From positions 91,158 to 155,157 of the forward strand of contig JACPPD010000007.1 in the NCBI GenBank assembly GCA_016191145.1: a DNA stretch of 64,000 nucleotides, in the 5' to 3' direction. The translations under genes and the position numbers were made by a program. The stretch is from Ignavibacteria bacterium (lineage in GTDB: Bacteria > Bacteroidota > Ignavibacteria > Kapaibacteriales > Kapaibacteriaceae). Shown piece after piece: positions 1,082 to 47,160 of this stretch; position 1 is the stretch's first letter; every line of letters begins with the position of its first letter. Below the pieces are notes generated by a model, which worked only from the letters and a program-made list of their open reading frames with translations, was not told the origin of the DNA and searched no databases.

Positions 1082-1124
1082 CTGATAACATTAACAATCA
1101 ACAACTAATCTCATCGGAGGAACA

Positions 1125-1939: not shown

Positions 1940-1946
1940 TACCGTA

Positions 1947-2486: not shown

Positions 2487-2527
2487 TTCCCATACATTGT
2501 AAATGAATTTAATTAAGGAATGAAACG

Positions 2528-13271: not shown

Positions 13272-13674
13272 AGAATTGGCACGGCTCTTGTGAGGAAGCG
13301 ATTGCCATTAGGGTCGATCTTCGATAAGTACCGTTATTACGGGGGATAATCGGAGGATCCTGGGTGTGAACCTGTGAAATTGTCTTCACAGGTGGTGTGC
13401 TATCAGAATTTCGAAAGTAAGCTTTGACGCAGATGTTACTTAAGGGCACAATCGTTGGAAATGAAATCATCCTTAGTGGATGTGTGCATTTCACGTTTGG
13501 CGCAATCATCTGTCAGAGGTATTTTAGCGGCGCATTGGAGGCACCGCTCACCCGGTTGGGGGGTGGTGTGCGCTATTCCATCATTGGGGGCGGATTACAG
13601 GCAGTGTATGAGAGATAGATACTTTTGGGCCGGACCGGGCAAAACCGTTCCGAACAAACATTTGGAAAATGCAT

Positions 13675-13700
13675 GGCGCCGAAGGCGCCTTTTGGTGTTT
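13675..13700 (+). terminator. GC hairpin plus T-tract (terminator/attenuator-like) in leader of giant gene
   Basis: GGCGCC-GAA-GGCGCC followed by TTTTGGTGTTT, about 80 nt upstream of the SD-supported start at 13779. Confidence 0.4.
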
Positions 13701-13778
13701 ACTAATAAAATGGATAATCAAAAAAGTTTTGAAAACAAGACAGTCATTATCAATCGTAACTCTTTCTCGGAGGATTGT

Positions 13779-22700: not shown

Positions 22701-24173
22701 CTTCCGGGTACCTATACTCTTACAGTGTCTGAAACCAACACGTACCGTTGTACTGCACAGGATCAGATCAGCGTGACCGTGAATGAGCTTCCGGATGTGA
22801 CGATCACTGCATCAGGTCCGACCACGTTCTGTCAGGGTGGCGACGTCACTCTCACTGCACCAATCGGATTTGAATCATACGTGTGGTCTACTGGCGAGAC
22901 GGCTCGCAGCATCGTGGTTCGTACTACTGGTCAGTATTGGGTTAAGGTCACCAACGAGTTTGGCTGCTCCAACAACTCCGATACAATTACCATTAACGTC
23001 TTCCCAAGCACGCTGCCAATCATTACTGTAAGCGGACCAACAACATTCTGCGAAGGTGGCTCTGTTGTTCTCACCGCTCCGTCGGGCTTCTCTAACTATC
23101 TGTGGTCGACAGGCGAAACATCGCAGTCAATCACGGTTACGCAGAGCGGCACCTACACAGTAACAATTGCAGACAACAACGGATGTACTGGAACATCAAC
23201 AGAAGTCGATGTTGTTGTGAACCCGAAACCGGCTCCAATCCTGACAGTTGTTGGTTCAACAACAGTTTGCTCAGGGGATAGCGTAGAAGTAAGGGCACCG
23301 GCTGGATACGTTTCCTACACGTGGATTTCAACGTCAGCTACCAACTATGGAACTGGACGCACGATCTTCGTTAGCCAGCAAGACGAAATCTACGTTGAGG
23401 TTGTTGATCTGAATGGATGCGTTGGCCAGTCGGATACGGTCAGCATCGAAGTTAGTCAGATTACACAGCCAGTAGTTATTCCAAGCGGACCAACAACGTT
23501 CTGCGAAGGCGGTTCTGTTGTACTCTCAGCTCCAGCAGGGTTTGCGTCCTACATCTGGTCGAATGGTGCTACAACACGCGAGATAACAGTCGAAGATGGC
23601 GGTGAATACTCAGTAACCGTCGTGAATGCTGTTCTCTGCGTGGCTGCTTCATCCAAGACAGAAGTAACGGTGAATCCGCTTCCGGAACGGCCATCAATCG
23701 AGCGCAGAGGAGATACTTTAAAGGCAATCTCCCCTGTAGCTGAAGCTTGGCAGTGGTACAAAAATGGAACTGAGATCACTGGCGCAAATGCTTCGTTCTT
23801 CATCGTTACGCAGGCAGGTATCTACCGCGTAGCAATCAAAGATGACAACACATGCTCGGCCATTTCAAATGGATTCGACGTGATTCTTACCGGTCTTGAT
23901 GATGATGTGGTTGCAGGAAAGGTCGGAGACATCAGACTCTACCCGAACCCAACAACCGGTATGTTCACTATCGAAGCTGATATTGCAAAATCCGGTGTGG
24001 TTTCCATCGAACTCGTCAACACTGTTGGCGAAATTGTGAAGACGATCACCGACGATTCGCAAGGCGGAGCGTTCAAGAAATCCATCGACATGGGAACACT
24101 TGCAAGTGGTGTATATAATGTAGTCGTCACGAGTGCTAACCAGCGCTGGACGGTACGGTTGGTTCGTCAGTAA
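13779..24173 (+). CDS. giant (~3460 aa) cell-surface adhesin-like protein with ~30 tandem Ig-like modules and T9SS C-terminal sorting domain
   Basis: GGAGG 5 nt upstream of ATG 13779, then a signal peptide (RFKAVAATLLSLLVVGSIAASA-QP). A roughly 400-aa N-terminal domain of unknown family is followed by about 26 repeats of ~85-90 aa (consensus P.P.ITGP..VC.G..Y.Y......G.TY.W.V.GG.I..G.......V.W...G...LTV.ET...GC, two Cys each). Four to five modules of a second type follow (GPTTFCEGGSV.LTAP.GF.SY.WS.GET...I.V...G.Y.V.V....GC). The C-terminus (LYPNPTTGMFTIEADIAKSGVVSIELVNTVGEIVKT...LASGVYNVVV...) matches the Por/T9SS CTD pattern. The ORF-track start at 13455 lies upstream of the hairpin and SD and is rejected. 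Confidence 0.85.
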   Translation: MNRFDSALSARQRGGGFVERFKAVAATLLSLLVVGSIAASAQPTLTHVGPPPPAAVFTAGQICSGQTPQFEVGTTAKPVTTYNLVEGNVALEAEVGATDIIGNLGDDQVWKLPAGDIQAAAGGNFIFEFFGQPHNLSTEGLFIGTNGFVRFQDGDPTNDANVELLETGIIAQNIPNVAGPNGAAYFLNIDLAPQAGEDVDWEIQDVNGGDALVLTFRDVSQYNPLLVYPYQQVEVQIILYPNNHPNTPNMIEVRLGNWPDPNVIPARVHTIGVENQCGTVAYADADHNADTWAVANAAGEVAGYSITFDPQAGASQTLTTTLYVVGPNGVINTYSTSSASPDDITRSGATAGTTGIPVSITSNTAVTSVTPAGQLTFFAVVEYEDCIIEVTNTVTLTVNPTPTAVTITGPVNVCVGTNYNYNVPLNNGNTYSWTSTDGFATITPAIPTINANTATVNWATGSNGGTAQTLTSTETTPAGCQAVHTVNVTVYTVPNGTISGPTPVCANSAGNVYSISGGPYGAYQWSITGAPAGTTTGSTTGTTFSVNWGDFAQPGTAQFPQVRVTVSNGPGGLCSFTATPLVVTVNPRPPVKTITASDATPCVNQTITYSVGLTAGNNYAWTAAGGTFAYTSPGAYVNGTPTLNLNSVQLQWTNAGSGRSMTVNETTPQGCLRTTTMSGIVVEALPTPVITGPSINVCGYLASAGGNPSFNTVPNPIQHTYAVAVPNASNTYAWSIPAASGYIVSAGPGTPSPTPGPGITSVSGLNVTQITVRWNNPAISVARTVNVTETSVNNCAGNAPTFNLTVVHTPEAANFSLAGPGITTTDPCANTTGVIYTGTTTLPAGTLQQVYVLAGGTLVSSVDAYPNVTATVNWGNAATGTLRHEATAPTGCVSYEEYVITIRPLPEADITGPSTVCGGTTGQVYGVTNIQNGPITHSWSFASNPGGIASFPGATTNSTVTVDFANPGAQTIVVLQDFITGPGPWLCTNTITYNITVNPTPAAPIIAGADGGGTPEYVCAGTTEGYTVTGIGGGTTTISVVGGTPSQTIFAGAGPFNFNVTWGFVPGGGAGSITATITLNNCPSTQTVFPVTVSPLPAVPIFEYSLDNVTFSTTIPPLCVYNVPFYVRVQNSTAGVTYNWNEYPQICWPTASASDNPGGGTNELWTITNWNCAHPANELYIVAYAQDDITGCISPGTGLPAPWTGLGAPYTSSPAVVVAPVPTPVISGPTDACNNVFDPAGMNGATVDADPTSYTYTYSTPQVVGNSYSWTVTNGYVVATSTDGGSTWTYLNPVATTNGAPILNANTVQVVFYGPTPGKVKVSEIAPGGCQATTLDYNVNLNPFPIAQSLVSWSPEVCSGDWGLLASFNSEATFTYRVETSTDGGSTWTPTPGVGTQTGNGGGLLWFIPPASIPYTAVPPNITTYTFRITAQHTATGCGWYPVSNTDIINVNPKPADNIPVVNTTPLTCEGDNVVVEVGDGGTPSESWVQYQLMRRQIADLSTGAPIAPTPYTYVGSPQVGNGIGSIQLIDNTAPAGGYPLLNADVYQYQVEAVTDMAPAPPPNIQCTTMLAQTVTERVFALPLAQVVSYTPNPICWEADLTVDLSGSQDGVEYEILRDGLSMAPPVIVDGNGGPVQVIVPAVQVMPSNPLFPTAVVFSTQARLRTEAFPPYDRPIPPSSCPNTFGYEEVTVNPKPVAVINGPDVACGPSTVDYTPGPWWGGWPSTYDWAILFAADPYPAPHSDPPVGTTPLFANNTGFGTVDPFTVDWGVHLLSCDGTYNPITVVLQMIETNLFNCPDTAFKEITIEPTLSDAVISGPTQACIYGGFEQHLTTYTISRPNPCIFPAGTTFLWSMPTGPVIGVIRSGQGTPTIVVEWTQTGGTNIGTIQSTVTLPPSHGGCATTVTYDVIVYPLPQPIVVGPTSVCQGDQNVIYTADYYATDNYEWIVVGGTINGGSGSGTIADPGYLSNLAANTISVNWLDQANPNAYVRLNQVSAAGCYNTNTLQVTVNPTPTPVIGGPAIVCDNSVYQYSTQSNAPNNVYQWTISGNAVINNGANQATVTIQTGAIGGGTQFVLELTETVQATTCTKTVSRTIDIVEKPNPTITRITAGGAVGGACLNQTIEYGDTDPVAGNPGYSYMWTVYNGSISGSNTASTVIVTWNTIGTGTVTLAKWHTSSQCTTTVSMDVNITAPPQPAISGPLQVCGEGEYTYSTPFVVGNTYEWTISGNGTITSGANTNAAVIKFDNPLPGSTLSADITVTESTTLSGCEASAVVEVTINYQPQVQNIDRIAPAGPVGQACLMDQITYALPNNNPGSTYQWTVTGGSIVGSSTNYDVTVQWTSAGAQVLTVVETDASGACEATSTLNVSVTYKPTPAISGPVAPCTDVDITYSTPAVPGSTYQWSITPGVGYIMLTGTTSNYITVRFTAAGPYTITLTEANGPCEVTTSVDINVTQLPTPLITRVSPPGNAQLACEGDIITYSTPEVAGNSYLWTVVGGGTILGSNTSNEVTVQWVSQGTHALTVLETTPGGGCFDEATLWVTVTYKPTPNINGANVACIEKILTYYTPAVAGDTYEWSITPANSFSPVVGYPNSNSITVQWILPGLHTVTVTETNVAGGCVTTVSMDVQVNEIPAPFITSPTGYGNPPGRRPGIVCNFSTHTYTTFPTPGNTFHFFVTGGTIIGNPYTNQVVVEWGPAGIGTIWVVETVPGSDCITTKLDSIDIRPTPAPTITGSSNPCGNSLQTYSTPFVAGNSYEWTVVGAASWFVVPGNPNQIRVTWNSPVWPNTIAGSVSVTEWVTDVLPDKSCINSTTLNVTVRPNPPVPTITDTSVVCATDLTDTPATINQVTYSSSDPGGVSFLWTISSNGTIIGSSTSSSVQVQWTNTGLTPTTGTITVRHTSIPWGCENTASMTVTINPLPRPNITGDLSACQNTIHAYSTPGLPGHSYSWTVGGGNIIRSGQGTPNVMVEWTLPGTYTLTVSETNTYRCTAQDQISVTVNELPDVTITASGPTTFCQGGDVTLTAPIGFESYVWSTGETARSIVVRTTGQYWVKVTNEFGCSNNSDTITINVFPSTLPIITVSGPTTFCEGGSVVLTAPSGFSNYLWSTGETSQSITVTQSGTYTVTIADNNGCTGTSTEVDVVVNPKPAPILTVVGSTTVCSGDSVEVRAPAGYVSYTWISTSATNYGTGRTIFVSQQDEIYVEVVDLNGCVGQSDTVSIEVSQITQPVVIPSGPTTFCEGGSVVLSAPAGFASYIWSNGATTREITVEDGGEYSVTVVNAVLCVAASSKTEVTVNPLPERPSIERRGDTLKAISPVAEAWQWYKNGTEITGANASFFIVTQAGIYRVAIKDDNTCSAISNGFDVILTGLDDDVVAGKVGDIRLYPNPTTGMFTIEADIAKSGVVSIELVNTVGEIVKTITDDSQGGAFKKSIDMGTLASGVYNVVVTSANQRWTVRLVRQ

Positions 24174-24201
24174 GAATTGACCACTGCAATATGAAAATAT
24201 A

Positions 24202-24236
24202 GAAGGCCGCACCTAGGTGCGGCCTTCTTTATTTTG
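24202..24236 (+). terminator. rho-independent terminator of giant gene
   Basis: GAAGGCCGCAC-CTAG-GTGCGGCCTTC perfect 11-bp stem followed by TTTATTTTG, about 30 nt after the stop codon. Confidence 0.85.
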
Positions 24237-24262
24237 TAACCACATGATCGCTCGTGTATCTT
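24234..24262 (+). promoter_or_regulatory. candidate sigma70-like promoter (TTGTAA-N17-TATCTT) reading into the heptamer repeat
   Basis: The -35-like hexamer overlaps the terminator T-tract and the -10-like hexamer ends 2 nt before the repeat. Sequence match only. Confidence 0.3.
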
Positions 24263-24263
24263 T

Positions 24264-24431
24264 AGTTCAGGGTTCCAGGTTCAAGGTTCCAGGTTCAGGG
24301 TTCCAGGTTCAGGGTTCAAAGTTCAAGGTTCAAAGTTCAAGGTTCCAGGTTCAGGGTTCAAGGTTCCAGGTTCAGGGTTCAAGGTTCCAGGTTCAGGGTT
24401 CCAGGTTCCAGGTTCCAGGTTCATAGTTCCA
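24264..24431. repeat. perfectly phased heptanucleotide tandem repeat (RGGTTCM)x24
   Basis: 24 contiguous 7-nt units (AGTTCAG GGTTCCA GGTTCAA ... AGTTCCA) with no indels. Sits between the terminator and the SD/start of the next gene. The track ORF 24217..24426 is only a translation of this repeat. Confidence 0.9.
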
Positions 24432-24471
24432 AGTGGTCGTAGTGCCGGGTGCCAAGTGCCAGGGAGTAATT

Positions 24472-25335
24472 ATGCAGGATTTATTCTTAGAGCTTATTGG
24501 AAACCGTGCAAAGTTCCAATTGCCATTTGTGTTGCTATTGTGCCTGCCTATTATGCAGGTATTGGCTGCATCGGGTGGCGTATCCCGTCAGAGCGCCTTC
24601 GGGTGCGGTCCCGGCGGATGCCATGGACCTACGGCCAGCTCCCAGACATCTGCTCGCATTAAGGAGGAGGAGTATGGTAGGCTGTCTTTTGAGCCGAATG
24701 AAAAGAGGAAGCTAACTCTTATTATAAATAACAATAACCGTCCGGCAGTCGGCTGCAATATTTCGGTTAAGACTACGAAGGGCGGCTACACAAATGCCGG
24801 GACACTTTCGACAATTCAGGGACAGGGACTGAGATTGTTGATTGGCGAGCTCACGCATGATTTCCAGCCTAAGGCTATGGCCTACGGTGAAGTACAATTT
24901 GAATTCGAATGGACGGCGCCACCTTCTGCAGGCACATACTTTCTGCATGCTGCAGTGAATGCCGTCAATATGAATGGTATTGCCGACGGCAACGACCAGT
25001 GGCAGGTAATGCAGGCAGTCGAAATCACCGTTTCGCCAACTAATTCTGTTTTCGAACAGAACAGCTCCAATCAGGCGCAAATCACGCCCCTTCCCGCTCA
25101 CGAACAAGTTAGCATTCACGCTCTGGTAGGGGGCGATGAAGCTGTGGATCTAAGAATCTTCGACATCTCTGGAAATATTGTTAAAGTAGCGTCGATCCGG
25201 CCGATGAATAACAATGTTGACTTTCTGTGGAATGGAACCGACGACGCTGATAGGCCTCTCCCGTCAGGCTTGTATCCTTTCAATATTGTTGCACCTGAAG
25301 CCGTCATCCGAGGCATCATTCTCTTTGAACGGTAA
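24472..25335 (+). CDS. secreted protein of unknown function with T9SS C-terminal sorting domain
   Basis: GGGAG SD 5 nt upstream, then a signal peptide (FVLLLCLPIMQVLAA). The C-terminal ~75 aa (VDLRIFDISGNIVKV...FLWNGTDDADRPLPSGLYPFNIV) fit the T9SS CTD pattern. Contains an unusual CGPGGCH motif. Confidence 0.6.
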   Translation: MQDLFLELIGNRAKFQLPFVLLLCLPIMQVLAASGGVSRQSAFGCGPGGCHGPTASSQTSARIKEEEYGRLSFEPNEKRKLTLIINNNNRPAVGCNISVKTTKGGYTNAGTLSTIQGQGLRLLIGELTHDFQPKAMAYGEVQFEFEWTAPPSAGTYFLHAAVNAVNMNGIADGNDQWQVMQAVEITVSPTNSVFEQNSSNQAQITPLPAHEQVSIHALVGGDEAVDLRIFDISGNIVKVASIRPMNNNVDFLWNGTDDADRPLPSGLYPFNIVAPEAVIRGIILFER

Positions 25336-25343
25336 CTGATTTT

Positions 25344-27668: not shown

Positions 27669-27730
27669 TAGGATACGTATGTCCGAATATCAGTTCCTGT
27701 GTATTTTAGTGGCTGAATAACCAAAGAACT

Positions 27731-28881: not shown

Positions 28882-28882
28882 G

Positions 28883-31500: not shown

Positions 31501-31513
31501 AAAGCATTAGCTA

Positions 31514-34500
31514 TCAGGGCATCCAGGCAATTGAATAGGCATATCGTTGAGTTGGTGAGTCTACAATTACATGATATAGTCCACTGGCCGCCTGAGTCAT
31601 ATTCAGCCTGATAAGTATGTCGGACTCTTCAGCCAAGCCGCGAATACCAACATCTTCCCTGATTATGCGACCTTCCACGGAAACAATGCGAACAATAAAC
31701 GATCCGGGCTCACCGCCGGAAATCAATACATCGATAGCGCCTGACGATGGTTTGGGCAGAACTAACACATTTGTTGGTGGGAAGAGTTTAAACATACGTT
31801 GAGGCAGACCACACCCAGTAATATAAAGTTCACCGGGAGTAGACTTAGGTGTGGGGCAGACAACATCTGTCCACTCAACATCTTCCCACACCAAGGTGCC
31901 AACGTCATCTTTTCCTAAAAGTGTCATTCCACGCACTTCGGTAATTTTCTGACGTTTTGTAACGATAAGTAAATCATTAAACGTCAGGTAGGCGCGGCGC
32001 TCATTGTTTCTCAACCCTGGAACGAGTGTACCCCTATCGGTACTCTGCGGAATGAACAAATCTGCCTGCATTATCAGTGTGGCTTTTAGTTTTGAGACAC
32101 GCAATGGCAGTAGTTCTTGTGCCACATCAACGTAGATTGGAATGCCTGCGCTTCGCTCACCCACGTTGGCCGTAACGGAGCCTGCGACGATCCGAACACT
32201 TGCAGTATCAATTACCGTTACTGTTAAATACTTTGTTTCGGTGCATCCCAGAGCATCAACACCAATCACTTGATACACCGTAGTCACCTGCGGCGCTGCT
32301 ATTGGATTAGAGCTGGAAACATCACTCAATCCATCAGGCGGATCCCACCTATATGATGCTGCACCGGTAGCAAGCAATTCTACCTGTGAGCCAAAACAAA
32401 TACTTGTATCACGTGAAAGTGTTAGATCGAGGTTTGAGACGAACACGGTAACGGAGTCGATAGCTGTACATGAACCGTTTGTGGCTGTAAGAGTATACGT
32501 TGTGGTTGTTGCTGGTGAAGCAATCGGCGAGAGAATGAACGGATCACTTAAACCAGCAGTAGGTCGCCACTCGTAGCGCTCTGCGCTTCCTGTAGACGAC
32601 AATCGAATGGATGCCCCCTTACAAAGCTCCAAATTAGCGCCTGCATCGATGAGCGGCGATGGTGTTACCGAAATGGTGATCGTATCGAAAGTTGAACATC
32701 CGGCACTTGTGCGCGCTTCTGCAATGTATGTTGTTGTCACTGTCGGCGAAGCAATGACTGTCCTTCCGGTATCGCTGCTAAGACCGGCTGATGGCGACCA
32801 CAGAACTGTGGGCGTACCTGTAGATGCATAGAGAGACGTCGACATTCCCAGGCACAGATCTGTGTTCGGTGACTGAACTTCGATAGGTGAAGCCTCATTA
32901 ACCTTAATCGTAATCACAGAGGTATCGGAACATGAGCCAGCCTTGCCAATCACTCTGATCCTCGATTCACTAAATAATATTACAACTGCAGAATCGCCAA
33001 CGGCCTGAATAATTCCGTTGCCACTCCAGGAATAATCAGTTGCATTGCCGCTTGCATAAATAACGAAGCGCTCACCGGAACAGACAACTGCAGGGCCGGA
33101 AAGCGTTGTCTGTACAGATTCAACTACTGTTACAACAACTGTGTCGGAAACAACGCAACTATCGACTCGCATCGTAACCACATACGATGTTGTTTGCGTT
33201 GGCTTAGCTATTGGGTTAGCAATATTGGGATTGCTTAATCCAGTGGCAGGCGCCCACTGATACGATGCTGCTCCAGAGGCAGTCAGCACCACCGAATCGC
33301 CGTTACAGACAGAGAGATCGGGTCCAACAGAAGGACTGGTAACCGTAACCACAACGAAAGCTGTATCGAAACAACCCTCTGCAGATGTTCCAATAACCCT
33401 GTATTTCGTTGTTGTCAGGGGGCTTGCAGTGGGTGCCGCAGATGTTGAATTCGAAAGTCCGGCGGCAGGAGACCACACATACGACTGAGCGCCACTTGCC
33501 GTTAGCTTTACAGATCCACCCTTACATATCCGCGAATTTCCAGTAACGCTAACCTGGGGTGGAAAGAGGACTCGCACCCATGTAGTTACGGTATCGCTTC
33601 CGTACAAGTTTGATACAATCAGAGTGACTGGAAATGAGCCGGCCGAATTGTAACAAATTTTAGGAGAACGCTCCCTCGACGTCGAAGGATTTCCTCCAGG
33701 CGTCTGCCAGTACCACGAATCAATGAATCCCTTGCTGTCATCTACAAGGCGAAGGCATTCGCCTATACAGGTCGATAATTCCTGAATCCTCGCTATGGGC
33801 TTTCTGCAAGCGCCATCACCTGGCCTGAACTGTAAAAGCATACTGCCGGGGAAGTTTGGAAGGCCCGCTCTGACTTCGCCAATAAGGACAACGGCAGAAT
33901 CCTGCAAGCCCGGACTAGGCATGGAAGGCGTGTTGAAACGAGCCAATATGTTTGTGCCGGGGCGGCCAATATAGATTTTAGCGTCGGGGCCAAGCTGCAG
34001 CGGCATCCACCCCTCCGAACTACCAAACCATGCTACGGATTCCTTCGATGACAGTATCACGCTTGGATCGTCTGAGTCAACAAACCACCTGTAGATCGTT
34101 GAGCCCTGTGCGGGATATTCAGTGGTAACGGCTGTGTATACGTACTTGTTATCGATGGAAAAAGACGCACCATAATGTGTGCCTATTCTGGTTCCGTTGA
34201 AAAGGTCGACCTGATCGTAAACAACACCGGTTGCACGATCTACATTGAACAGTAACGACAAACCCGAAGACGAAGTGATAACAAGTTTTGAACCGCTTGG
34301 CGATGTTTGCATCTGGCCGGCATCGCGGATATCGTAACCATTTTTAATAACAGATACCACCGGTATCTTTGAAATGCCTGCTGATGTTAAGTGAAACGAA
34401 ACGAATGCAGGGATATTTCTCTTTCGGGCTATGATCCACCAGCCGCCCCCTTCACAATCGGGTGTGGCTGTTACATGTTCGGTTATATCATCTTCCAAAA

Positions 34501-35044
34501 TCTCATTTTTAACAACTACGTCGCCATACCCATCTTCGCGGCGCATATCAACAATCGAGTATTTAAGACAAAAACATCTACCGTTAATGTTGCTCGAAGT
34601 AATTGGAGCTGGGTTAACAACAATGTAACTAAATGTATTTCCTGGCATTGGAAGAATAAGGGCGCTTTGCGACGTCGATTTATCTCCATGCAATCCTGTG
34701 CCATTCGGCATTGGATTGTGTAGCCGGTTCCAAATTGTTACGCCATCGGTATAAAACAGCATTTCACCATTTGACAGGCGAGATATCGTAGCGCTGCCTT
34801 CAAAGGTATTGATCTGCCCACCCGTTAGCACTTCCGGATCGCCGTCGAGAAACGTGATTCCGGCGTTGGCGCCGAAGTACCAATTCTTGGCAAGATTCTG
34901 CGCTTCTGCACGCTGCGCAATTACAAGCACGCAGGCAGCGGTGATGCAAAAAACCACCCCGAGGCATAAACGCCCCTTTCCCCCTGAATCATATAGGGTT
35001 ACCCTTTGCACTACAATGTTGGAATTTACACTAAAAGGCGACAC
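31514..35044 (-). CDS. large secreted protein: N-terminal beta-rich domain + ~8 Ig-like repeats + T9SS C-terminal domain
   Basis: Signal peptide (CLGVVFCITAACVLVIAQRAEA), then a ~400-aa N-terminal domain (NWYFGANAGITFLDG...LFYTDG). Repeats of ~80 aa follow (C.GGSV.LTASGA.SY.W.PA.GLS...A.P..TT.Y.V.G....GC.DT..V.V). The C-terminus (DVLISGGEPGSFIVRIVSVEGRIIRE...ASGLYHVIVDS) fits the T9SS CTD. Confidence 0.75.
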   Translation of the reverse strand: MSPFSVNSNIVVQRVTLYDSGGKGRLCLGVVFCITAACVLVIAQRAEAQNLAKNWYFGANAGITFLDGDPEVLTGGQINTFEGSATISRLSNGEMLFYTDGVTIWNRLHNPMPNGTGLHGDKSTSQSALILPMPGNTFSYIVVNPAPITSSNINGRCFCLKYSIVDMRREDGYGDVVVKNEILEDDITEHVTATPDCEGGGWWIIARKRNIPAFVSFHLTSAGISKIPVVSVIKNGYDIRDAGQMQTSPSGSKLVITSSSGLSLLFNVDRATGVVYDQVDLFNGTRIGTHYGASFSIDNKYVYTAVTTEYPAQGSTIYRWFVDSDDPSVILSSKESVAWFGSSEGWMPLQLGPDAKIYIGRPGTNILARFNTPSMPSPGLQDSAVVLIGEVRAGLPNFPGSMLLQFRPGDGACRKPIARIQELSTCIGECLRLVDDSKGFIDSWYWQTPGGNPSTSRERSPKICYNSAGSFPVTLIVSNLYGSDTVTTWVRVLFPPQVSVTGNSRICKGGSVKLTASGAQSYVWSPAAGLSNSTSAAPTASPLTTTKYRVIGTSAEGCFDTAFVVVTVTSPSVGPDLSVCNGDSVVLTASGAASYQWAPATGLSNPNIANPIAKPTQTTSYVVTMRVDSCVVSDTVVVTVVESVQTTLSGPAVVCSGERFVIYASGNATDYSWSGNGIIQAVGDSAVVILFSESRIRVIGKAGSCSDTSVITIKVNEASPIEVQSPNTDLCLGMSTSLYASTGTPTVLWSPSAGLSSDTGRTVIASPTVTTTYIAEARTSAGCSTFDTITISVTPSPLIDAGANLELCKGASIRLSSTGSAERYEWRPTAGLSDPFILSPIASPATTTTYTLTATNGSCTAIDSVTVFVSNLDLTLSRDTSICFGSQVELLATGAASYRWDPPDGLSDVSSSNPIAAPQVTTVYQVIGVDALGCTETKYLTVTVIDTASVRIVAGSVTANVGERSAGIPIYVDVAQELLPLRVSKLKATLIMQADLFIPQSTDRGTLVPGLRNNERRAYLTFNDLLIVTKRQKITEVRGMTLLGKDDVGTLVWEDVEWTDVVCPTPKSTPGELYITGCGLPQRMFKLFPPTNVLVLPKPSSGAIDVLISGGEPGSFIVRIVSVEGRIIREDVGIRGLAEESDILIRLNMTQAASGLYHVIVDSPTQRYAYSIAWMP

Positions 35045-35133
35045 ATTCTCAACCTATGTAATGTGTTTTTTACTCAAATGTGAACACCCTATTACCCTAG
35101 ATTTGCCAAGGCACAAGCCACATAAAGGACTAG

Positions 35134-35838
35134 ATGGAAAAGAAGATTTTAGTTGTCGACGACGAGCAAGACATCGTTGACCTCATCTCTTACAACCTAG
35201 GCAAGGAAGGCTACAAGGTTTTCACAGCATCGAATGGCACAAAGGCTGTGGAAGTGGCTACGGCACTGCATCCCGATCTGGTGATCCTCGACATCATGAT
35301 GCCGGGTATGGACGGCTTTGACGTGTGCCGTACTCTTCGTAGGAATGCATCAACGCAGTCCGTAGCAATCATGTTTTTAACTGCAAAATCCGGGGAAATT
35401 GATCAGATACTTGGCCTGGAGCTTGGCGCCGACGACTATATTCAAAAGCCAATCAGTCCGCGGGTTTTAATTGCGCGTGTGAAAACGATTTTGAGAAGAG
35501 GCACGGAAACGGTTCGAACGGAAACGATTGCAGCTCCGGAAATACTGCAGATTGGCGCACTGGAAATCAACCGACAGAACTATACCATCCGCGTCGATAA
35601 AAAGGAAATATTCTTTCCTAAAAAAGAATTCGAACTGCTAGCCTTTCTTGCTGCTAATACTGGCAAAGTATTTTCGCGCGAATCGCTTCTCCGACGGATA
35701 TGGGGAGAAAGCGTCTATGTTATCGATAGAACGGTTGATGTTCACATATCAAAAATTCGCGAAAAAATTGCCCCTTATAGCAGTTGGATAGAAACAGTTA
35801 AAGGTGTTGGTTATCGTTTCAGAGAGCAACTCTCATAA
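35134..35838 (+). CDS. two-component response regulator, OmpR/PhoB family
   Basis: Receiver domain (ILVVDDEQDIV...LDIMMPGMDGF) and winged-helix output (SRESLLRRIWGESVYVIDRTVDVHISKIREKI...VKGVGYRF). Confidence 0.9.
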   Translation: MEKKILVVDDEQDIVDLISYNLGKEGYKVFTASNGTKAVEVATALHPDLVILDIMMPGMDGFDVCRTLRRNASTQSVAIMFLTAKSGEIDQILGLELGADDYIQKPISPRVLIARVKTILRRGTETVRTETIAAPEILQIGALEINRQNYTIRVDKKEIFFPKKEFELLAFLAANTGKVFSRESLLRRIWGESVYVIDRTVDVHISKIREKIAPYSSWIETVKGVGYRFREQLS

Positions 35839-35847
35839 CTTGCATAC

Positions 35848-36933
35848 ATGTCGGTGCTTTCCCGTAAGCAGCCTTTTCATCGCGTCTCAGTAATCTGGAC
35901 CGCCATTGCTATATCGGCTGTTGTGCTGCTGTTCCTTGCAGTTGCCGGAGTGTATACTCCAAATATTGCAGCACAGTTTGGCGCTCTGCGCCTTGCGGCT
36001 CTGATTGTAAGCATTGTCCTGATTGGATTTGGAATTCATTGGGCACACATACGCTCATTGGAGCGGCGTGTGCTGCATCCACTGCAACGGGTAGCAGACA
36101 TCACACAGGCAATTGTTGATGGTGCAGTGTCGGGTCAGATAGATCTTGATAAGGACACCGTTCAGGATGTTGTAATAGTGTCGGAGGCAGTGAATAGGCT
36201 TGCACAAAAGGCTACTCGCGACGTTTCCGAAATGAAGCGCCTCGAGCGCGTCAGGAGTGAGTTTATCGGCAACGTTTCGCATGAATTGCGTACACCAATA
36301 TTCAGCGTCCAAGGCTACCTTGAAACCTTGCTGGACGGCGCCATAGACGACGCCAACGTTAGCAGGCAATTTTTAGAGAAGGCTTATCAGAATGCACTGA
36401 GATTAAATGCACTTCTTAGCGATCTGATAGATATATCGCGAATCGAAAGTGGTGAACTGCGTTTGTCGTTTCGGTATTTCGATATCGCAGATGTATTAAA
36501 AGAGGTTGTCCAGACAATGGAAATCAGGAGCCTGCAAAAAAACGTTCACATTGCAATCGACGTTGAGCCGAATGCGGACTTAACTGTGTACGGCGATAAA
36601 GAACGACTAACGCAGGTGATGACGAATCTGATAGACAATGCAATTAAGTATAGCGTAGAAAAGGGATTTGTAACAGTTAAAGCCTTCAGACACGATGGCC
36701 ACGTAAGGATATCCGTTAGTGACAATGGCATTGGCATTGCGCCAGAGCATCATCCAAGAGTGTTTGAACGGTTCTATCGCGTAGATCGGGACAGATCGAG
36801 GGCAGTGGGTGGAACCGGACTCGGTTTGGCGATTGTTAAACATATTTTGGAAGCGCACCAAGCACCAATTACTCTTCACAGTGAGCAAGGGGCTGGAACA
36901 ACGATAAGCTTCGAGTTGAAGGCAGCTACCTGA
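35848..36933 (+). CDS. two-component sensor histidine kinase
   Basis: Two N-terminal TM helices, an H-box (FIGNVSHELRTPI) and an HATPase_c domain with N and G1/G2 boxes (LIDNAIKYS, DNGIGI, GGTGLGLAIV). Confidence 0.85.
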   Translation: MSVLSRKQPFHRVSVIWTAIAISAVVLLFLAVAGVYTPNIAAQFGALRLAALIVSIVLIGFGIHWAHIRSLERRVLHPLQRVADITQAIVDGAVSGQIDLDKDTVQDVVIVSEAVNRLAQKATRDVSEMKRLERVRSEFIGNVSHELRTPIFSVQGYLETLLDGAIDDANVSRQFLEKAYQNALRLNALLSDLIDISRIESGELRLSFRYFDIADVLKEVVQTMEIRSLQKNVHIAIDVEPNADLTVYGDKERLTQVMTNLIDNAIKYSVEKGFVTVKAFRHDGHVRISVSDNGIGIAPEHHPRVFERFYRVDRDRSRAVGGTGLGLAIVKHILEAHQAPITLHSEQGAGTTISFELKAAT

Positions 36934-39793
36934 TTACGGTTATACGCTCGGGTAGAATGGTCTGGCTGGTTCGCATTGTAAGAGTATAAGAACCAACGGG
37001 AACCTGCATTAAATTCACCAGGAGTGACTGACCGGACTGATACCAGCTTGCGGAATGCGTAGTCCCATGAATGTCAATAAGATTACAATCGTCTATTTGA
37101 ATGCCAACTTCAAGTCCAATCATTACGTGCGTCGCCGCCGGCTGAGGATACACAACATGTACAGCCTGAGTTTGGTCGGTTACCGACGTCAACTGCTCAA
37201 TTGAGAAATCGTCAAAATAAAATCCGTCAGACTGCTTGGTGACATTCGACCTGAACCTCAAACGGAACAGAAGAGTGTCGCGTACTACCAATTCACGCCC
37301 TGTTATCCTGGCCGTCCCATATCGCCATGCATCGTCACCCTTTGTTGTGTCTGCCCAGCGATCATCGAGCGATGAGTTCCACCATGCTAGTACGCTCCAT
37401 TTACCATCGAAACCATATCCAGATTTTGTTTCCAAGAACATTGTATCACCTGGATCGATAAATGCAGCAACGCGCCACGAGAGTATTACATCATTTCCTT
37501 CCGTGGAAGGAAATGGTTCGGAAAATGGGTAGAGATAGACGGTGTCTTTGGATGATCGCGCGTAAGGTCCGACGGAAGAATCGGTGTACGATGCCGGCTC
37601 GGAGAAATAAAAATTGTTAGTTGTGTCCCATGATCCTTTAGTGACAAGGTATCTGGGCTTGGCACTGAAATTTTCAAAGTAGTTGGCTAGGCTGCCAGCA
37701 TACACAACAGTAGTATCTGAGAAGGGAGAGCTATTGCTCTCATCGTCGACAACAGCAGAGCTGATTCTATACCAACCACGTTCGCCAACATATACATTAA
37801 ACGTAATTGTCCTGCCGGTATCACTCGGTTCAACATCAAAATCGAATACAAACGAATTCGCCCGAATCCGGATAGTATCAAGATTTACGAGTTTGGTAAC
37901 GCCATCGAGCCGCGTAGTGGGGATGGTTAATACCACTGTTACAGAATCAAGTTCGCTACCGTTCGCAGACATGACGGTGGGAATGCCCGGCAATTTGGAT
38001 CCACCAGCAAATGCAGAAGCATAACGAGGTGAACTGACAGATGGCCCGGAAGCGGCAACGAGTTTGTATTGATATTCAGAGTACCTTACAAGACCAGTAT
38101 CTTTCCATGATAGGATGGAGACCGGAGTTTGAAAAACTGAATCTCCATCACGATAGATGATAAAAAACGTGTTTGCTGAGTCAAGGGGCTGGCCAAACGA
38201 TCGCTGCGTAATAGCACTCCACTCCAGCAATATCGATGTTGGCTCATCAGCTAATGTTGTTGCTGTAAACTCCGCGGGTGGTTCGGGTGCATCAACCGGT
38301 ATCACGCTTGTATAGACGTCGTTGTCTGATTTGTTCGATGGAGTCACATTCCGCATGTCAACCCACGACGGATAAATACGCCCCTTATAAAAATCACATC
38401 CGCTATAGTCACCAGCAAAGGTGTTTCCCTGGAAAGGATTCTGACGCAGATCATTTATTCCATCGCCAACCAGCCTGTCCGTCCAGTTGCTTCCGCCGTC
38501 AGACGTGTAGCTGACGTAGCTGTTTACGAGAAGGTTTTGTGCATCATTCCTACTATCAAGGTACATAACTGCCACATCGCCATTAGTCGGATCTAGCGCA
38601 ATCCACGGCCAAAATTGATCGTTAGTTGTATCGGAATGAACAATCCGAGGAGACGACCATGTTTGGCCATTATCCGTCGAGCGTGAAAAGTAAACATTTG
38701 GATAATTATCGGCAGCCCAGCACAAATACAGCCATCCATTTCGTGAACCGCCAGTGTTGTCGATAACAAGTGTCGGATACGCTTCAGCGCGAACAACTCC
38801 CTTTACACGCGAATTAGTCTGCTTGCTGATTTCGATCTTTTCGCCGAACGGCTGATAGGTGTGGATTATCTCAGGTTGAGTCCACGACGCACCTCCATCC
38901 GAAGACCGCGCGTACCGTATAGCACTCTCCGTCCCGCTGTTCCACACTACATGTACATTTCCATTGGGTGCCGTTCGTGCAAGTGGAAAACTCTGCCCAA
39001 ATGTAGGATCATCGCTGGAGCTGGCAAATCGATTGCTGACGTTTGTTGGTGCCGACCATGTTAAACCACGGTCGGTGCTAAATGAAATTACAATCTGCGT
39101 GGATGTATCTGCATTGATAACTCGTTTCCAGGGAATGTATATCCGACCCCTATACGGCGAGGTTCTGCTGGTATCCACGTGGATGTAGTATTTATCTTCA
39201 AATGCACTATCGGCCGTTTGCTGCCCTGTGTGAATGATGACGGGCACATGCTTCGGGTTCCACGTTGCACCGGCATCGGTGGTTACCGAAACAAATACAC
39301 CATTCTCACCAAACTGCGAATTATCGACTCGGTTAAAACCGCCATAACACAAAAATCCTCGTCCCTCGTGGTCGAAGCTTACAGATGGATCGTTGCTCGA
39401 CGCCCAACCCACCCTTGCTTTCCCGAGATTAGTGTTCTGCCATGTAAGGCCTCCATCGGTGGAGTGATACGCCCACGTCGACGAACCATCGCGATAATCA
39501 ACAGCAGATGCAATCAGATGTAATGGATTGGTGGGGTTTACCGCAATTGATGATTCATTCTGTGTGGGTAGCGGGTCATCCTCTTCGATAATCGTGTTCA
39601 CATTCAGGAATAACGACGGGAATGGAACTGACTGCATCATCGGAATCATCGGTAGCTTTTGAGCCCCTTCACTTTGTTCAATGGGTGTTGGATGAGCTCG
39701 TTCAAAATTCCGTTCGTGTGGATTTACCGTCTGTGCATGGAGCAGAATTTGAACAGCCAGTAACATAACTACAGCAATAACGGCGGCTTTCAT
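36926..39793 (-). CDS. secreted BNR/sialidase-like beta-propeller protein with FN3-like region and T9SS C-terminal domain
   Basis: Signal peptide MKAAVIAVVMLLAVQILLHAQ, with the internal Met start preferred because it avoids overlap with the upstream gene. Six or more Asp-box motifs (STDGGLTW, TDAGATW, STDRGLTW, SSDGGASW, STDNGQTW, TSDGGSNW). The C-terminus (VVYPQPAATHVMIGLEV..IDIHG...GSYTL) is CTD-like. Confidence 0.7.
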   Translation of the reverse strand: MKAAVIAVVMLLAVQILLHAQTVNPHERNFERAHPTPIEQSEGAQKLPMIPMMQSVPFPSLFLNVNTIIEEDDPLPTQNESSIAVNPTNPLHLIASAVDYRDGSSTWAYHSTDGGLTWQNTNLGKARVGWASSNDPSVSFDHEGRGFLCYGGFNRVDNSQFGENGVFVSVTTDAGATWNPKHVPVIIHTGQQTADSAFEDKYYIHVDTSRTSPYRGRIYIPWKRVINADTSTQIVISFSTDRGLTWSAPTNVSNRFASSSDDPTFGQSFPLARTAPNGNVHVVWNSGTESAIRYARSSDGGASWTQPEIIHTYQPFGEKIEISKQTNSRVKGVVRAEAYPTLVIDNTGGSRNGWLYLCWAADNYPNVYFSRSTDNGQTWSSPRIVHSDTTNDQFWPWIALDPTNGDVAVMYLDSRNDAQNLLVNSYVSYTSDGGSNWTDRLVGDGINDLRQNPFQGNTFAGDYSGCDFYKGRIYPSWVDMRNVTPSNKSDNDVYTSVIPVDAPEPPAEFTATTLADEPTSILLEWSAITQRSFGQPLDSANTFFIIYRDGDSVFQTPVSILSWKDTGLVRYSEYQYKLVAASGPSVSSPRYASAFAGGSKLPGIPTVMSANGSELDSVTVVLTIPTTRLDGVTKLVNLDTIRIRANSFVFDFDVEPSDTGRTITFNVYVGERGWYRISSAVVDDESNSSPFSDTTVVYAGSLANYFENFSAKPRYLVTKGSWDTTNNFYFSEPASYTDSSVGPYARSSKDTVYLYPFSEPFPSTEGNDVILSWRVAAFIDPGDTMFLETKSGYGFDGKWSVLAWWNSSLDDRWADTTKGDDAWRYGTARITGRELVVRDTLLFRLRFRSNVTKQSDGFYFDDFSIEQLTSVTDQTQAVHVVYPQPAATHVMIGLEVGIQIDDCNLIDIHGTTHSASWYQSGQSLLVNLMQVPVGSYTLTMRTSQTILPERITVIR

Positions 39794-41739
39794 AAGGGAC
39801 TCCAACCAAAGTCTCGCACCATTGTTTGTACGGCGTGTTCAAACCGACCTACATTGTCGTCGCGTTCGTTTCTCATCATCGTAACAATATTTATCATCGT
39901 CAGTAGCCTTGCCGGTGATTTTCTATCGTGTGTAATACGTGTTGCCTCTGTGAGCAGGGCACGCCCTTTCTGTTCGTCGTTATTTGCCAGCGCAAGCACT
40001 GCACGAACGTTTAGCAGCATTACCTTGTCGTCTGCCGACCTTACCGATTCTACCCCCGCTTCGTCGAGCAGTGCCTCTGCATCCTTCATCGCCTGCATTG
40101 CAATGCACGCCCTTGCAGCAATGCAGCGAGCAATTATCCGCTCATGACTTGTGAGAGTCTTCCGCTGCAATACATCTAATGCTAATCGGCGGGCACTCTG
40201 AGGCTCATTGTTTAACAGGTGCTCACACGCAGATCCCAGAATGATTACTGCCATTTGATGCCGTTCAGAAGATGTGCTTTCCGGTGCCGCAGGTTCTTCG
40301 GAAAGATCGACGGTTTCTGATGAAACCGTTTTAATCAGGAGTTCCGCCCTGATAAAATCCGAAGTATCGAATGCACCTATCATCTCAGCTCCAACTGCGG
40401 CAGACTCCAGCATGGCATTCATGGTAGCTTCATTCTCTGCTTCCGAACTATGTGCTGCTATGAATGCTGCAATCTGAAAACGAATTTCATCTACTGACGC
40501 TGCGTTGTGCTCCCGCGATAGAATTTCGACGATGCGTTGATGTATGTGTTTTCGTTCTTCATATTCCGGGTAGTGCAGGAAGTGCAGAAATGCAACGCTC
40601 GTTGTAAATTCATACGTCGTGGTTTTAAGTCCATACCTTGTCCGCATACCCACACTCTTTACACATCCTGTTTGCATTTGAATTCTGCGCAGTGTCCTGA
40701 CGGCCGACAACACATCGGTGTTCATCAGAGACGAAGCAAGGAAGGCAGTGAATTCTCTGCCCTCTGCTGCACAAAGCGATAGCGTGATAGCATCCTGCTC
40801 AGAGATTTCGTGAAGTGTAAAATCTGTGTAGGGATGATCGCTCAGCTTCACTCCGCTCTCTGATAGAGCAGTGTCGGGGATTACACCATCCTTACCGATC
40901 TGATTTGTGCGTTCGAAGTACCGAATGTATTCTACGAGGACTCCGGGGATTCCGGCGCTCCGCTCATGAAGCATCTGAACCTGCTTATCCGTTGGTTTTA
41001 GGTAGGGGGCATGTAATTCAATAATCTTCGCAACATCATCAATATTTATAGTATCTAGGTGAAGAGTTCGCGCAGCGGCATTTGTATGCTGCAGTAGCGA
41101 TGCTAATTGGAGATTTGATCTATTGGCAACAGATGGAGTTACACACCAAATCAGCAGGATTGGCTGGGCAGATGGTTCTTCCAGCAGCCTCTTTACTACT
41201 TCAACACTTTGCGCATCCGACCAGTGTCCATCGTCGATTAAAAGTATCAGCGGAGTTTGGGCAGCAACCCGACGCAATGTTGTGATGCAATCATCGACAG
41301 CGGCGCGTTTTTTTTGCTGAAGGGCAGCCGTTTCCTTTCTGAATTCAGTAACGTCTTGCGATATCGCTTTGATGGCGTAAAAAATGTCGCCGGCTATCGG
41401 TATCGATGCCAGCACAGACATCCCAATATTCACAGCGAGTCGCTTTCGGGCAGCCCTCTCTGTGTTTAGGAAGACCTGCTCCAGAGCATATCCAAACGGC
41501 TGCAGCGGCTGAATTGCCGATACGTTAAACGAGCCTATTGGTGGGCGACAATCTACCCTGACGATTGAATGTTCACCTACGCTGCCACCGAATGTTTCCT
41601 GAACGGCACTTAACACATAGCTCTTACCCGAACCCGGTTCGCCGGTAATGAACAATACATCGCCCTTGCCCTTGCGCCATTGTGCCACCGACTCATCGAT
41701 ACGACTTGCAAGATGTGTTCGTCCAATAATCTTCATCAA
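39790..41739 (-). CDS. STAND-type NTPase (AAA_16-like P-loop + TPR-like helical repeats), paralog 1
   Basis: Walker A GEPGSGKS, Walker B LILLIDDGHWSD and a C-terminal ~350 aa of alpha-helical TPR-like repeats. Similar in architecture and motifs to the protein at 47161..49395. Its start overlaps the upstream membrane-protein gene by 4 bp. Confidence 0.7.
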   Translation of the reverse strand: MMKIIGRTHLASRIDESVAQWRKGKGDVLFITGEPGSGKSYVLSAVQETFGGSVGEHSIVRVDCRPPIGSFNVSAIQPLQPFGYALEQVFLNTERAARKRLAVNIGMSVLASIPIAGDIFYAIKAISQDVTEFRKETAALQQKKRAAVDDCITTLRRVAAQTPLILLIDDGHWSDAQSVEVVKRLLEEPSAQPILLIWCVTPSVANRSNLQLASLLQHTNAAARTLHLDTINIDDVAKIIELHAPYLKPTDKQVQMLHERSAGIPGVLVEYIRYFERTNQIGKDGVIPDTALSESGVKLSDHPYTDFTLHEISEQDAITLSLCAAEGREFTAFLASSLMNTDVLSAVRTLRRIQMQTGCVKSVGMRTRYGLKTTTYEFTTSVAFLHFLHYPEYEERKHIHQRIVEILSREHNAASVDEIRFQIAAFIAAHSSEAENEATMNAMLESAAVGAEMIGAFDTSDFIRAELLIKTVSSETVDLSEEPAAPESTSSERHQMAVIILGSACEHLLNNEPQSARRLALDVLQRKTLTSHERIIARCIAARACIAMQAMKDAEALLDEAGVESVRSADDKVMLLNVRAVLALANNDEQKGRALLTEATRITHDRKSPARLLTMINIVTMMRNERDDNVGRFEHAVQTMVRDFGWSPL

Positions 41740-47053: not shown

Positions 47054-47160
47054 AAATGGTGTTCTACCCTCTGCCATTTGTTCATACCCTTAGGTATCCC
47101 GAAGTTCGTAGCCCTATGAGAGCCAGCTTACTAAAAAATCTATGTACTCCGAAGGAGAAG

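Follow-up and report, generated by a model that had tools for sequence, protein, structure and literature searches.

The window analysed here, a stretch of 64,000 nucleotides (nt) from contig JACPPD010000007.1 of an Ignavibacteria bacterium, carries between obg and dnaK five genes whose products end in a type IX secretion system (T9SS) C-terminal sorting domain (CTD). We conclude, with a probability of roughly 0.7, that these are five genuine Sec-exported type A CTD cargo genes, and that they lie in a fixed chromosomal backbone, rather than in an island, of a Kapaibacteria/Ignavibacteria-like clade. As T9SS type A cargo from a lineage that has seen little study, the proteins extend a familiar class and are in this respect fairly ordinary.

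We refer to the five genes as G1 (13455/13779-24173, plus strand; 3,464 amino acids (aa) from start 13779), G2 (24433/24472-25335, plus strand; 287 aa from start 24472), G3 (25344-27668, plus strand; 774 aa), G8 (31514-35044, minus strand; 1,138-1,176 aa), and G11 (36926-39793/39805, minus strand; 955 aa from start 39793). The start codons at 13779, 24472, and 39793 are those that yield a signal peptide. An earlier first-pass annotation of this DNA had listed five CTD genes here, and open reading frames (ORFs) are found at each of its positions, which makes that parts list correct. The same annotation had placed a TonB-dependent receptor, an OmpR-type response regulator (RR) with a histidine kinase (HK), and paaBCD among the cargo genes, and all of these are present at 27731-36933.

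The C-terminal domains of the five proteins are assigned to the T9SS type A family

We scanned the tails in two ways, first within whole proteins and then as the last ~95 residues alone, against models with curated cut-offs of 23 bits (TIGR04183), 27 bits (PF18962), and 27 bits (FlgD_ig). In the whole-protein scans, G1 scored above both type A cut-offs (PF18962, 42.2 bits; TIGR04183, 32.4 bits), and G3 gave significant, sub-threshold matches to the same models (24.0 and 17.7 bits, respectively). G2 matched TIGR04183 at 15.9 bits and FlgD_ig at 32 bits, the latter above its cut-off, and the scans of G8 and G11 returned no CTD match at E<=0.01. As an isolated tail, G1 reached 41.4 bits for TIGR04183 and 47.9 bits for PF18962, while G3 reached 23.2 and 28.0 bits, barely over both cut-offs and borderline overall. 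The isolated tails of G2 (17.1 bits for each model), G8 (14.7 and 17.8 bits), and G11 (14.9 and 19.0 bits) scored lower, and that of G2 again matched FlgD_ig, at 32-33 bits. The type A model was the top match for four of the five tails and ranked second to FlgD/FlgD_ig models for G2. In all five tails the match spans nearly the full model and lies at the extreme C-terminus.

The first-pass annotation had proposed a check of the five C-termini against TIGR04183 and TIGR04131. By these models G1 and G3 pass as type A, G2, G8, and G11 remain below the cut-off, and no tail matches TIGR04131, the type B model, at E<=10. The CHU_C family (PF13585) was matched by G2 alone, at 14 bits (E 0.058), and by 0 of 41 G8-orthologue tails. 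We had considered G8 as a type B (CHU_C) cargo for its Ig_7 domain, and the tests gave no CHU_C match; more distant homologues of the G8 body carry CHU_C.

Because three tails miss the curated thresholds, we compared homology directly through profile alignments (hhalign), orthologue scans, and structure, which rescues them. The profiles were built from the tails of 120 G11, 120 G3, and 73 G8 homologues, and from three orthologues each of G1 and G2. The hhalign probability was 84-99 % for nine of the ten tail pairs, with values of 97.9 % for G1-G3, 97.2 % for G1-G8, 97.3 % for G1-G11, and 98.9 % for G3-G11. The G2 tail scored 96.4 % with G3 and 94.9 % with G11, and 35 % when compared with G1 directly. 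As a control, we aligned seven internal immunoglobulin (Ig)-like segments of G8 (PKD, Ig_7, and five others) with the same profiles, and they scored <=13 %, compared with 96.6-97.3 % for the G8 tail.

Orthologues and structure lead to the same family. When G8-orthologue tails were scanned singly, 27 of 41 matched PF18962 (E<=0.05, best 9.5e-6), and PF18962 is precomputed in many G11 and G3 orthologues, several of which NCBI has named 'T9SS type A sorting domain-containing protein'. The AlphaFold model of G8 residues 1085-1176, the sole tail modelled, is a 7-strand sandwich (3+4) with a predicted local distance difference test score (pLDDT) of 96.1. Among its structural matches in the PDB, the CTDs of PorU (6za2), NucA (8glk_D, in a T9SS translocon complex), and mirolase (8qb1) rank 2-10, and comparison of the G8 tail profile with PDB sequences gave marginal matches to mirolase (0.037) and PorZ (0.045). 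Common to all five tails are an xPxP start, a D/N-x-x-G loop, a G-x-Y strand, and a conserved Gly motif in the beta3-beta4 loop, where Gly is needed for the secretion of RgpB (PMC11285876). Furthermore, of all the ORFs in the 64 kb, a CTD hidden Markov model tuned to the clade matches these five alone. Taken together, the tail scans, hhalign, the orthologue scans, and the fold of the G8 tail agree, and the five T9SS-CTD proteins of the first-pass annotation stand. We assign G1, G3, G8, and G11 to the type A CTD proteins with high confidence and G2 with moderate confidence.

Signal peptides and domain architecture of the cargo proteins

Inspection and hydropathy place one hydrophobic segment at the N-terminus of each cargo, with an AxA-like site behind it, and give no further transmembrane segment. 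A Gln follows the predicted signal-peptidase site in G1, G3, G8, and G11 (ASA|Q, VNA|Q, AEA|Q, and LHA|Q, respectively). A Gln at this position is known as the 'Bacteroidetes Q-rule' (PMC5837995), which four of the five cargoes fit. These features predict a route in which the cargoes would cross the inner membrane by Sec and lose the signal peptide, exposing an N-terminal Gln in four of five. Each cargo would then fold in the periplasm, where the T9SS translocon would recognise the 7-strand CTD and a PorU-type sortase would cut it off, and the processed cargo would be attached to the cell surface or released.

G1 opens with a signal peptide, continues with ~90-aa Ig-like repeats, of which there are ~30 or more (residues ~390-3380; 30-45 % mutually identical), and closes with its type A CTD (about nt 23937-24170). 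Eight of the repeats match PKD_6 (PF19408, 1.3e-48), and similarity to the Ig-like repeats of GhpA (9flp, 6e-79) extends over 13 stretches. The orthologues that follow obg in relatives range from 1,058 to 3,516 aa, the short forms corresponding to the C-terminal third of G1. From this architecture we infer a giant fibril or adhesin that would be displayed at the surface, with a repeat number that varies by lineage.

The first-pass annotation had counted three large proteins with Ig repeats and two with BNR propellers. That count does not hold: two proteins contain Ig-like repeats (G1 and G8), three contain a propeller (G3, G8, and G11), and one is a choice-of-anchor protein (G2). G2 is no large Ig-repeat protein: its 287 aa consist of a signal peptide, then a choice-of-anchor V domain (NF041895, 84.4 bits; cut-off 42), and finally, at about nt 25084-25332, a sandwich of the FlgD_ig/CTD-like type. 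The choice-of-anchor domain class is defined by co-occurrence with alternative C-terminal anchors. Compared with PDB sequences, G2 matched FlgD only, at E 0.3. The choice-of-anchor V domain opens with GCGxxxCHG (CX4CH) at residues ~44-52 (about nt 24600-24630), a stretch that is kept in the relatives' contigs L087 and L088 and resembles a variant c-type heme-attachment motif.

In G3, a signal peptide and a Ycf48-like BNR beta-propeller (PSII_BNR, 4e-15; Ycf48 in the PDB, 6e-11) come before the type A CTD, which covers about nt 27432-27665. This protein is 100 % identical to MBI2793976.1 (HYX66_04905), as is G8 to MBI2793981.1 (HYX66_04930), both from a metagenome-assembled genome labelled 'Ignavibacteria bacterium'. 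In G8, the signal peptide is followed by a 7-bladed beta-propeller (nt 33740-34912). PKD/Ig_7-like repeats occupy about nt 32207-33739, the divergent CTD of type A covers nt 31517-31792, and 10 stretches match the Ig_7-like repeats of GhpA (5e-93). The propeller was modelled with confidence (pLDDT 93.3; predicted template-modelling score 0.92), and a fold search with it returned just generic 7-bladed propellers (template-modelling score <=0.55), and therefore no ligand can be inferred from its neighbours.

G11 combines a signal peptide with a BNR_2 beta-propeller (47 bits) and ends in a divergent CTD of type A (about nt 36929-37183); its homologues number more than 1,000. NCBI has given the name 'exo-alpha-sialidase' to G11 orthologues, and G11 itself matches PDB sialidases at E 0.002 across residues 295-438, which cover two blades only. 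We rejected G11 as a sialidase, for which the BNR_2 score and this PDB match are too little.

The interval between obg and dnaK is conserved in gene order

We fetched metagenome contigs of relatives from three sides, namely G11, G3, and an unknown gene upstream of obg. The sufficiently long ones (L081-L083, L085-L088, L092, and L093-L115) are collinear with the window in the order atp…obg-G1-(G2)-G3-paaBCD-TonB receptor-G8-RR/HK-G11-AAA ATPase…dnaK. Approached through G11, six contigs (L081-L083, L085, L086, and L092) read hsp20-dnaK-(DinB/MIP/arsC, variable)-membrane protein-AAA_16-G11-HK-RR-G8-receptor-paaDCB-G3. Compared with the window, identity is 84-95 % in DnaK, 52-86 % in G11, 40-45 % in G8, 59-62 % in the receptor, and 61 % in PaaC, and the cargo proteins as a group are mostly 40-60 % identical in relatives, well below DnaK. 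Through G3, contigs L087 and L088 show G1 (3,516 and 3,466 aa, respectively; PKD_6 + Por_Secre_tail)-G2-G3-paaBCD-receptor-G8-RR-HK-G11. From the gene upstream of obg, 10 of the 12 long loci read atpF/H/A-epimerase-atpG-…-radA-(ECF sigma)-unknown-obg-G1, and L113 and L114 end before obg.

The first-pass annotation had raised the possibility that the obg..dnaK interval is variable; within the clade, its gene order is fixed. Differences among the relatives are confined to G1, in its length and number of repeats, to G2, which may be missing, and to arsC/MIP. In L098 (12349-15525), L100, and L111, the G1 orthologue is a protein of 1,058 aa, G2 is missing, and G3 comes next. Beyond the clade, a G3 homologue (37 % identical) and G11 homologues (44-48 %) occur in unrelated contexts, and among the matches listed from a DnaK genome scan, distant relatives (<=78 %) share only hsp20-dnaK. 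We conclude that the interval is conserved chromosomal backbone. The collinearity runs through the housekeeping flanks and therefore reflects shared ancestry; taken alone, it is no sign of functional coupling of the units.

The homologues carry the names Candidatus Kapabacteria, Kapaibacterium, Ignavibacteria, and Chlorobi bacterium OLB. NCBI places Kapaibacteriia (= Eximiradiia) within Bacteroidota, and the block belongs to this class. T9SS genes are possibly present in Ignavibacteriota, Chlorobiota, and other phyla of the Fibrobacteres-Chlorobi-Bacteroidetes (FCB) group (PMC11285876, PMC5837995).

The TonB receptor, the two-component system, and the predicted transcription units of the block

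The TonB-dependent receptor (29365-31500, minus strand; 711 aa) is made up of the Plug and barrel Pfam domains, matches CirA in the PDB at 1e-32, and falls in the CirA/BtuB/heme class. Its best NCBIfam matches are TonB-B12 (145 bits) and TonB-hemin (125 bits), all far under cut-off. The receptor does not belong to the SusC-like type, and none of the ORFs between 13 and 43 kb has a Pfam family of SusD, glycoside hydrolases (GH), polysaccharide lyases (PL), carbohydrate esterases (CE), or carbohydrate-binding modules (CBM). A search with Rfam found no riboswitch, and hence no cobalamin clue for the receptor.

The RR (35134-35838, plus strand; OmpR/PhoB-type) has NF053854, PhoB(Bacteroidetes), as its top-ranked match, at 252.5 bits versus a cut-off of 270. 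For the HK (35848-36933, plus strand), the top-ranked matches are PnpS (301 bits; cut-off 400) and PhoR (276 bits; cut-off 334), and hydropathy gives two transmembrane helices with a loop of ~11 residues, which is a PhoR-like topology. The RR/HK pair may be the Pho regulator of this organism, and it stands next to G11 and G8 in relatives as well. A phoU gene is located at 63138-63809 (197 bits, above cut-off), 26 kb from the pair, and no pst operon is adjacent.

The spacer between G8 and the RR gene contains a TAnnTTTG box (about 35085-35115) ~25-30 nt upstream of the RR start, which is kept in L085 and L087. TAnnTTTG is the Bacteroidetes-type -7 promoter element. Upstream of it, a GTAAT/GTTAC…TTTTAC element recurs in all five G8/RR spacers compared. 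An alignment of the spacer from five genomes was too divergent for an RR binding site.

The block reads as at least five separate transcription units. G1 would be transcribed alone and closed by a strong intrinsic terminator (24201-24238, plus strand; 12-bp stem with 8 G-C pairs and a T tract), and the hairpin also follows the G1 orthologues in L087 and L088. This terminator excepted, scans for sigma-70 promoters and terminators gave counts not above the shuffled expectation. A further unit would be formed by G2, G3, and paaBCD, with gaps of 9 nt between G2 and G3 and 63 nt between G3 and paaB. A tandem repeat of 167 nt (24265-24431), which can be written as GTTCAAG x22.7 (7 nt) or GTTCAAGGTTCCAG x11.9 (14 nt), ends 40 nt upstream of the G2 start and is absent from the L087 and L088 spacers. 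A change in its copy number could alter the expression of G2-G3-paaBCD, or be neutral.

On the minus strand, G8 is followed after 13 nt by the receptor gene, and the two would form a unit in which G8, a propeller on an Ig stalk at the surface, and the receptor act as a capture/import pair for a small ligand. The PhoB/PhoR-like RR-HK unit is divergent from this pair and would be its most plausible regulator; the G8-receptor pair is probably under the neighbouring two-component system. The remaining unit would contain a membrane protein, an AAA_16 ATPase, and G11, whose stop and start codons overlap.

The three paa genes overlap or abut on the plus strand. Of these, paaC (28126-28881; TIGR02158, 243 bits) and paaD (28883-29368; TIGR02159, 154 bits) score above cut-off, and paaB (27731-28126; TIGR02157) reaches 82 bits for a cut-off of 85. 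Neither paaA nor paaE was found in the window or in the syntenic loci, and PaaC has no ExxH (di-iron) motif. The trio is likewise placed after secreted-protein genes in L086, L087, L088, L098, and L111.

The AAA_16 ATPase and G11 recur as a fused protein

G11 is preceded by genes for an AAA_16 P-loop ATPase (39790-41739, minus strand) and a 325-aa membrane protein with four hydrophobic helices (41736-42713, minus strand). The ATG of G11 overlaps the stop codon of the ATPase gene (ATGA; the junction reads cccTTATGAaa), and stop and start codons likewise overlap between the ATPase and membrane-protein genes. The trio is kept in L081-L083, L085, L086, and L092. The membrane protein has no Pfam or NCBIfam match. 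The ATPase matched no PDB sequence, which leaves it with no solved relative, and its family, at E<=1e-30, comes to about 87 clusters in which most members stand alone at ~650-700 aa and give no hint of function. Residues 105-123 of the ATPase, which lie between Walker A and Walker B, are a strongly conserved hydrophobic insert, NIGMSVLASIPIAGDIFYAIK (NIGMSxLASxPIAGDIFYAIK).

In 14 of the 120 best G11 homologues (P0017, P0018, P0024-26, P0029, P0032, P0035, P0047-49, P0058, P0061, and P0071; locus L092 10001-14797), the ATPase, a transmembrane segment, and the BNR propeller are joined in one protein of ~1,600 aa. These fusions are continuous, and several are without an internal Met. The signal peptide of the cargo is now an internal hydrophobic segment that keeps the AxA|Q-type site. 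One fusion, P0058, occupies the context of the split pair, hsp20-dnaK-…-arsC-membrane protein-[fusion]-HK-RR-G8, and in a neighbour-joining tree the fused forms fall in at least four clades, interleaved with split forms.

Based on this recurrent fusion and fission, we argue for a functional link between the ATPase and the G11 cargo. A bolder proposal, to which we give little credence, is that the membrane protein, the ATPase, and G11 form an undescribed envelope module in which the ATPase is mechanistically tied to an exported BNR-propeller protein. Such a module may be a dedicated cytoplasmic partner that exports or assembles a T9SS cargo, with the fused form as a self-cleaving 'polyprotein', or it may be a STAND-like transmembrane sensor whose outer domain retains a CTD-like fold. 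The recurrent AAA_16/G11 fusion is the sole element beyond routine annotation and the most unusual point of the locus.

Alternative explanations

The first-pass annotation had viewed the block as an accessory locus for surface or glycan interaction, and an island of this kind, possibly acquired horizontally, between housekeeping genes would account for five surface-protein genes in 26 kb with none in the other 38 kb, for the BNR and 'sialidase-like' domains beside a TonB receptor, and for a GC content over G1 of 0.50-0.52 versus about 0.47. However, GC ranges from 0.45 to 0.52 across the interval and from 0.44 to 0.49 in its flanks, and this mild rise, confined to G1, follows the Thr/Val/Gly/Pro-rich repeats of that protein. 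The order from atp to dnaK is identical in all long relative contigs down to 84 % DnaK identity, the window holds no tRNA, no direct repeats bound the interval, and no integrase or transposase Pfam match occurs among the scanned window ORFs. The glycan part fares no better, as the receptor is of the CirA/BtuB/heme class, no SusD, GH, CBM, or other carbohydrate-active enzyme (CAZyme) family accompanies it in the ORFs between 13 and 43 kb, and the sialidase signal of G11 is marginal. We therefore consider an island very improbable. Somewhat less remote, although still unlikely, is an explanation in which the G2, G8, and G11 tails are structural sandwiches of the Ig or FlgD_ig type and the proteins stay in the periplasm or inner membrane, G11 perhaps as the outer part of an ATPase-linked complex. 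This would fit three tails below curated cut-offs, FlgD_ig as the best Pfam match of G2, the lack of a core T9SS gene among the window ORFs scanned, and the ~12 % of best G11 homologues that are single polypeptides with an N-terminal AAA_16 domain and an internal transmembrane segment. It does not explain why the tails of G8 and G11 share homology with the G1 CTD (hhalign, 97 %) when internal Ig domains are not (<=13 %), why the domain always stands at the extreme C-terminus, or why many orthologues pass PF18962. In addition, T9SS CTDs are among the top structural matches of the G8 tail, and the fused orthologues retain the AxA|Q-type signal-peptidase site.

A single regulon for nutrient acquisition, with phosphate or a metal cofactor as examples of the nutrient, in which the PhoB/PhoR-like system governs the binders, the receptor, and paaBCD together, appears doubtful to a similar degree. 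It draws on PhoB and PhoR/PnpS as the top matches of the RR and HK, the two-helix, tiny-loop topology of the HK, the divergent arrangement with G8-receptor across a shared spacer with conserved elements, the conserved adjacency, and phoU in the window. The RR and HK nevertheless score below the curated PhoB and PhoR cut-offs, the five spacer sequences gave no binding-site motif, the housekeeping flanks keep their gene order at least as well as the block does, homologues of G3 and G11 outside the clade occur by themselves, and the units lie on different strands with a terminator between two of them. Several results also weigh against the reading that we prefer, five type A cargo genes in conserved backbone. 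The tails of G2, G8, and G11 score 14.7-19.0 bits (E 0.002-0.02), under the curated TIGR04183 and PF18962 thresholds. For the G8 tail, Foldseek E-values of 1e-3 to 1e-2 are weak, which the small size of the domain would lead one to expect, and generic Ig folds are interleaved with the CTDs. Synteny is equal in the housekeeping flanks and is silent on functional coupling, and a cargo fused behind a cytoplasmic-type ATPase is compatible with T9SS export only where signal peptidase cuts the internal segment. Finally, no core T9SS gene (gldK/L/M/N, sprA/sov, porV, or porU) was found among the ORFs scanned in the window, the 64 kb of this genome that were covered along with syntenic copies, and the PorE-like gene described below is far under cut-off.

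Other genes of the window

The first-pass annotation had reported no T9SS machinery in the window, which is correct for the core components among the ORFs scanned; it had not included a sub-threshold PorE-like gene at 55778-57379 (plus strand), the sole machinery-like gene of the window. The product combines PD40 and OmpA_C domains and matches NF052230, T9SS_PorE, at 236 bits (cut-off 600) and, equally well, the CHU_0125 OmpA-like family at 245 bits (cut-off 620).

The flanks are housekeeping genes, as first described, with atp genes and obg on the left and dnaK and polA on the right. Directly left of the G1 region is obg, which ends at 13271, and the left flank further contains the atp operon, an ADP-heptose epimerase gene, radA, an ECF sigma factor gene, and two unknown genes. 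On the dnaK side the description holds in part, as genes for the membrane protein, the AAA_16 ATPase, arsC, an MIP channel, and DinB precede dnaK, which is followed by hsp20. Further right are genes for a STAND/TPR ATPase, an NlpC/P60 protein, and TerC, polA, a gene for a UppP-cyclophilin fusion, the PD40+OmpA gene, thrS, a gene for NhaA, and phoU. The STAND ATPase (47056-49395; 779 aa) is a second AAA_16/STAND protein, with TPR repeats, and is divergent from hsp20-dnaK, an arrangement kept in L082, L083, L085, and L086. The ORF at 53731-55218 joins an undecaprenyl-diphosphatase (BacA/UppP, residues 1-275) to a cyclophilin-type peptidyl-prolyl isomerase (residues 320-490), and a separate second cyclophilin gene follows it.

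Implications and comparison with known systems

The block provides a delimited set of T9SS type A cargo candidates from a barely studied Kapaibacteria/Ignavibacteria branch. Curated CTD thresholds miss three of the five cargoes, and cargo counts in such lineages are therefore likely to be underestimates without clade-tuned profiles. The AAA_16-propeller fusion offers a lead on how some cargoes are handled ahead of the T9SS. The locus is also a cautionary case, as a dense functional cluster amid housekeeping genes looked like an island and yet is conserved backbone.

Parts of the window invite comparison with studied systems. In the phenylacetyl-CoA epoxidase PaaABCDE, PaaA is catalytic and PaaE is the reductase. 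Here, the equivalog cut-offs are cleared by paaC and paaD and narrowly missed by paaB (82 versus 85 bits), but paaA and paaE are absent at the locus, PaaC is without the di-iron ExxH, and the genes follow two secreted-protein genes. The product of 55778-57379 shares the PD40 propeller and OmpA_C with PorE (PG1058), a periplasmic lipoprotein of the T9SS, across model positions 149-600 of 648, although it is without the N-terminal TPR part.

As in the paired binders and TonB receptors of SusC/SusD polysaccharide utilization loci, HmuY-HmuR, and BtuG-BtuB, G8 is immediately upstream of a receptor and a regulator is adjacent. The receptor differs from SusC in being a 711-aa CirA/BtuB/heme barrel, neither CAZymes nor a cobalamin riboswitch accompany it, and its partner G8 is a T9SS cargo rather than a lipoprotein of the SusD, HmuY, or BtuG type. 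The giant Ig-repeat adhesins and filaments of the T9SS include SprB-type proteins and the Aureispira grappling hook GhpA (9flp), and with GhpA G1 and G8 share Ig_7-like repeats, in variable repeat number. This likeness is limited to generic repeat modules. GhpA-type proteins use other terminal domains, and the CTD of G1 is type A, not type B; hook heads, gliding, and predation are without evidence here.

The closest counterparts are the studied type A cargoes, namely RgpB and PorZ/PorU of P. gingivalis, mirolase of T. forsythia, and NucA of F. johnsoniae. For the cargoes described here, secretion, cleavage by PorU, and anchoring to A-type lipopolysaccharide (A-LPS) are putative. The lineage also differs, being Kapaibacteriia/Ignavibacteria-like rather than Bacteroidia or Flavobacteriia, three of the tails are under the cut-offs, and the G8 tail ends in W-M/L-P, without basic C-terminal residues. 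In their overall plan the five proteins nevertheless match these cargoes, with the same N-terminal signal peptide and the same C-terminal 3+4 beta-sandwich of ~80 residues.

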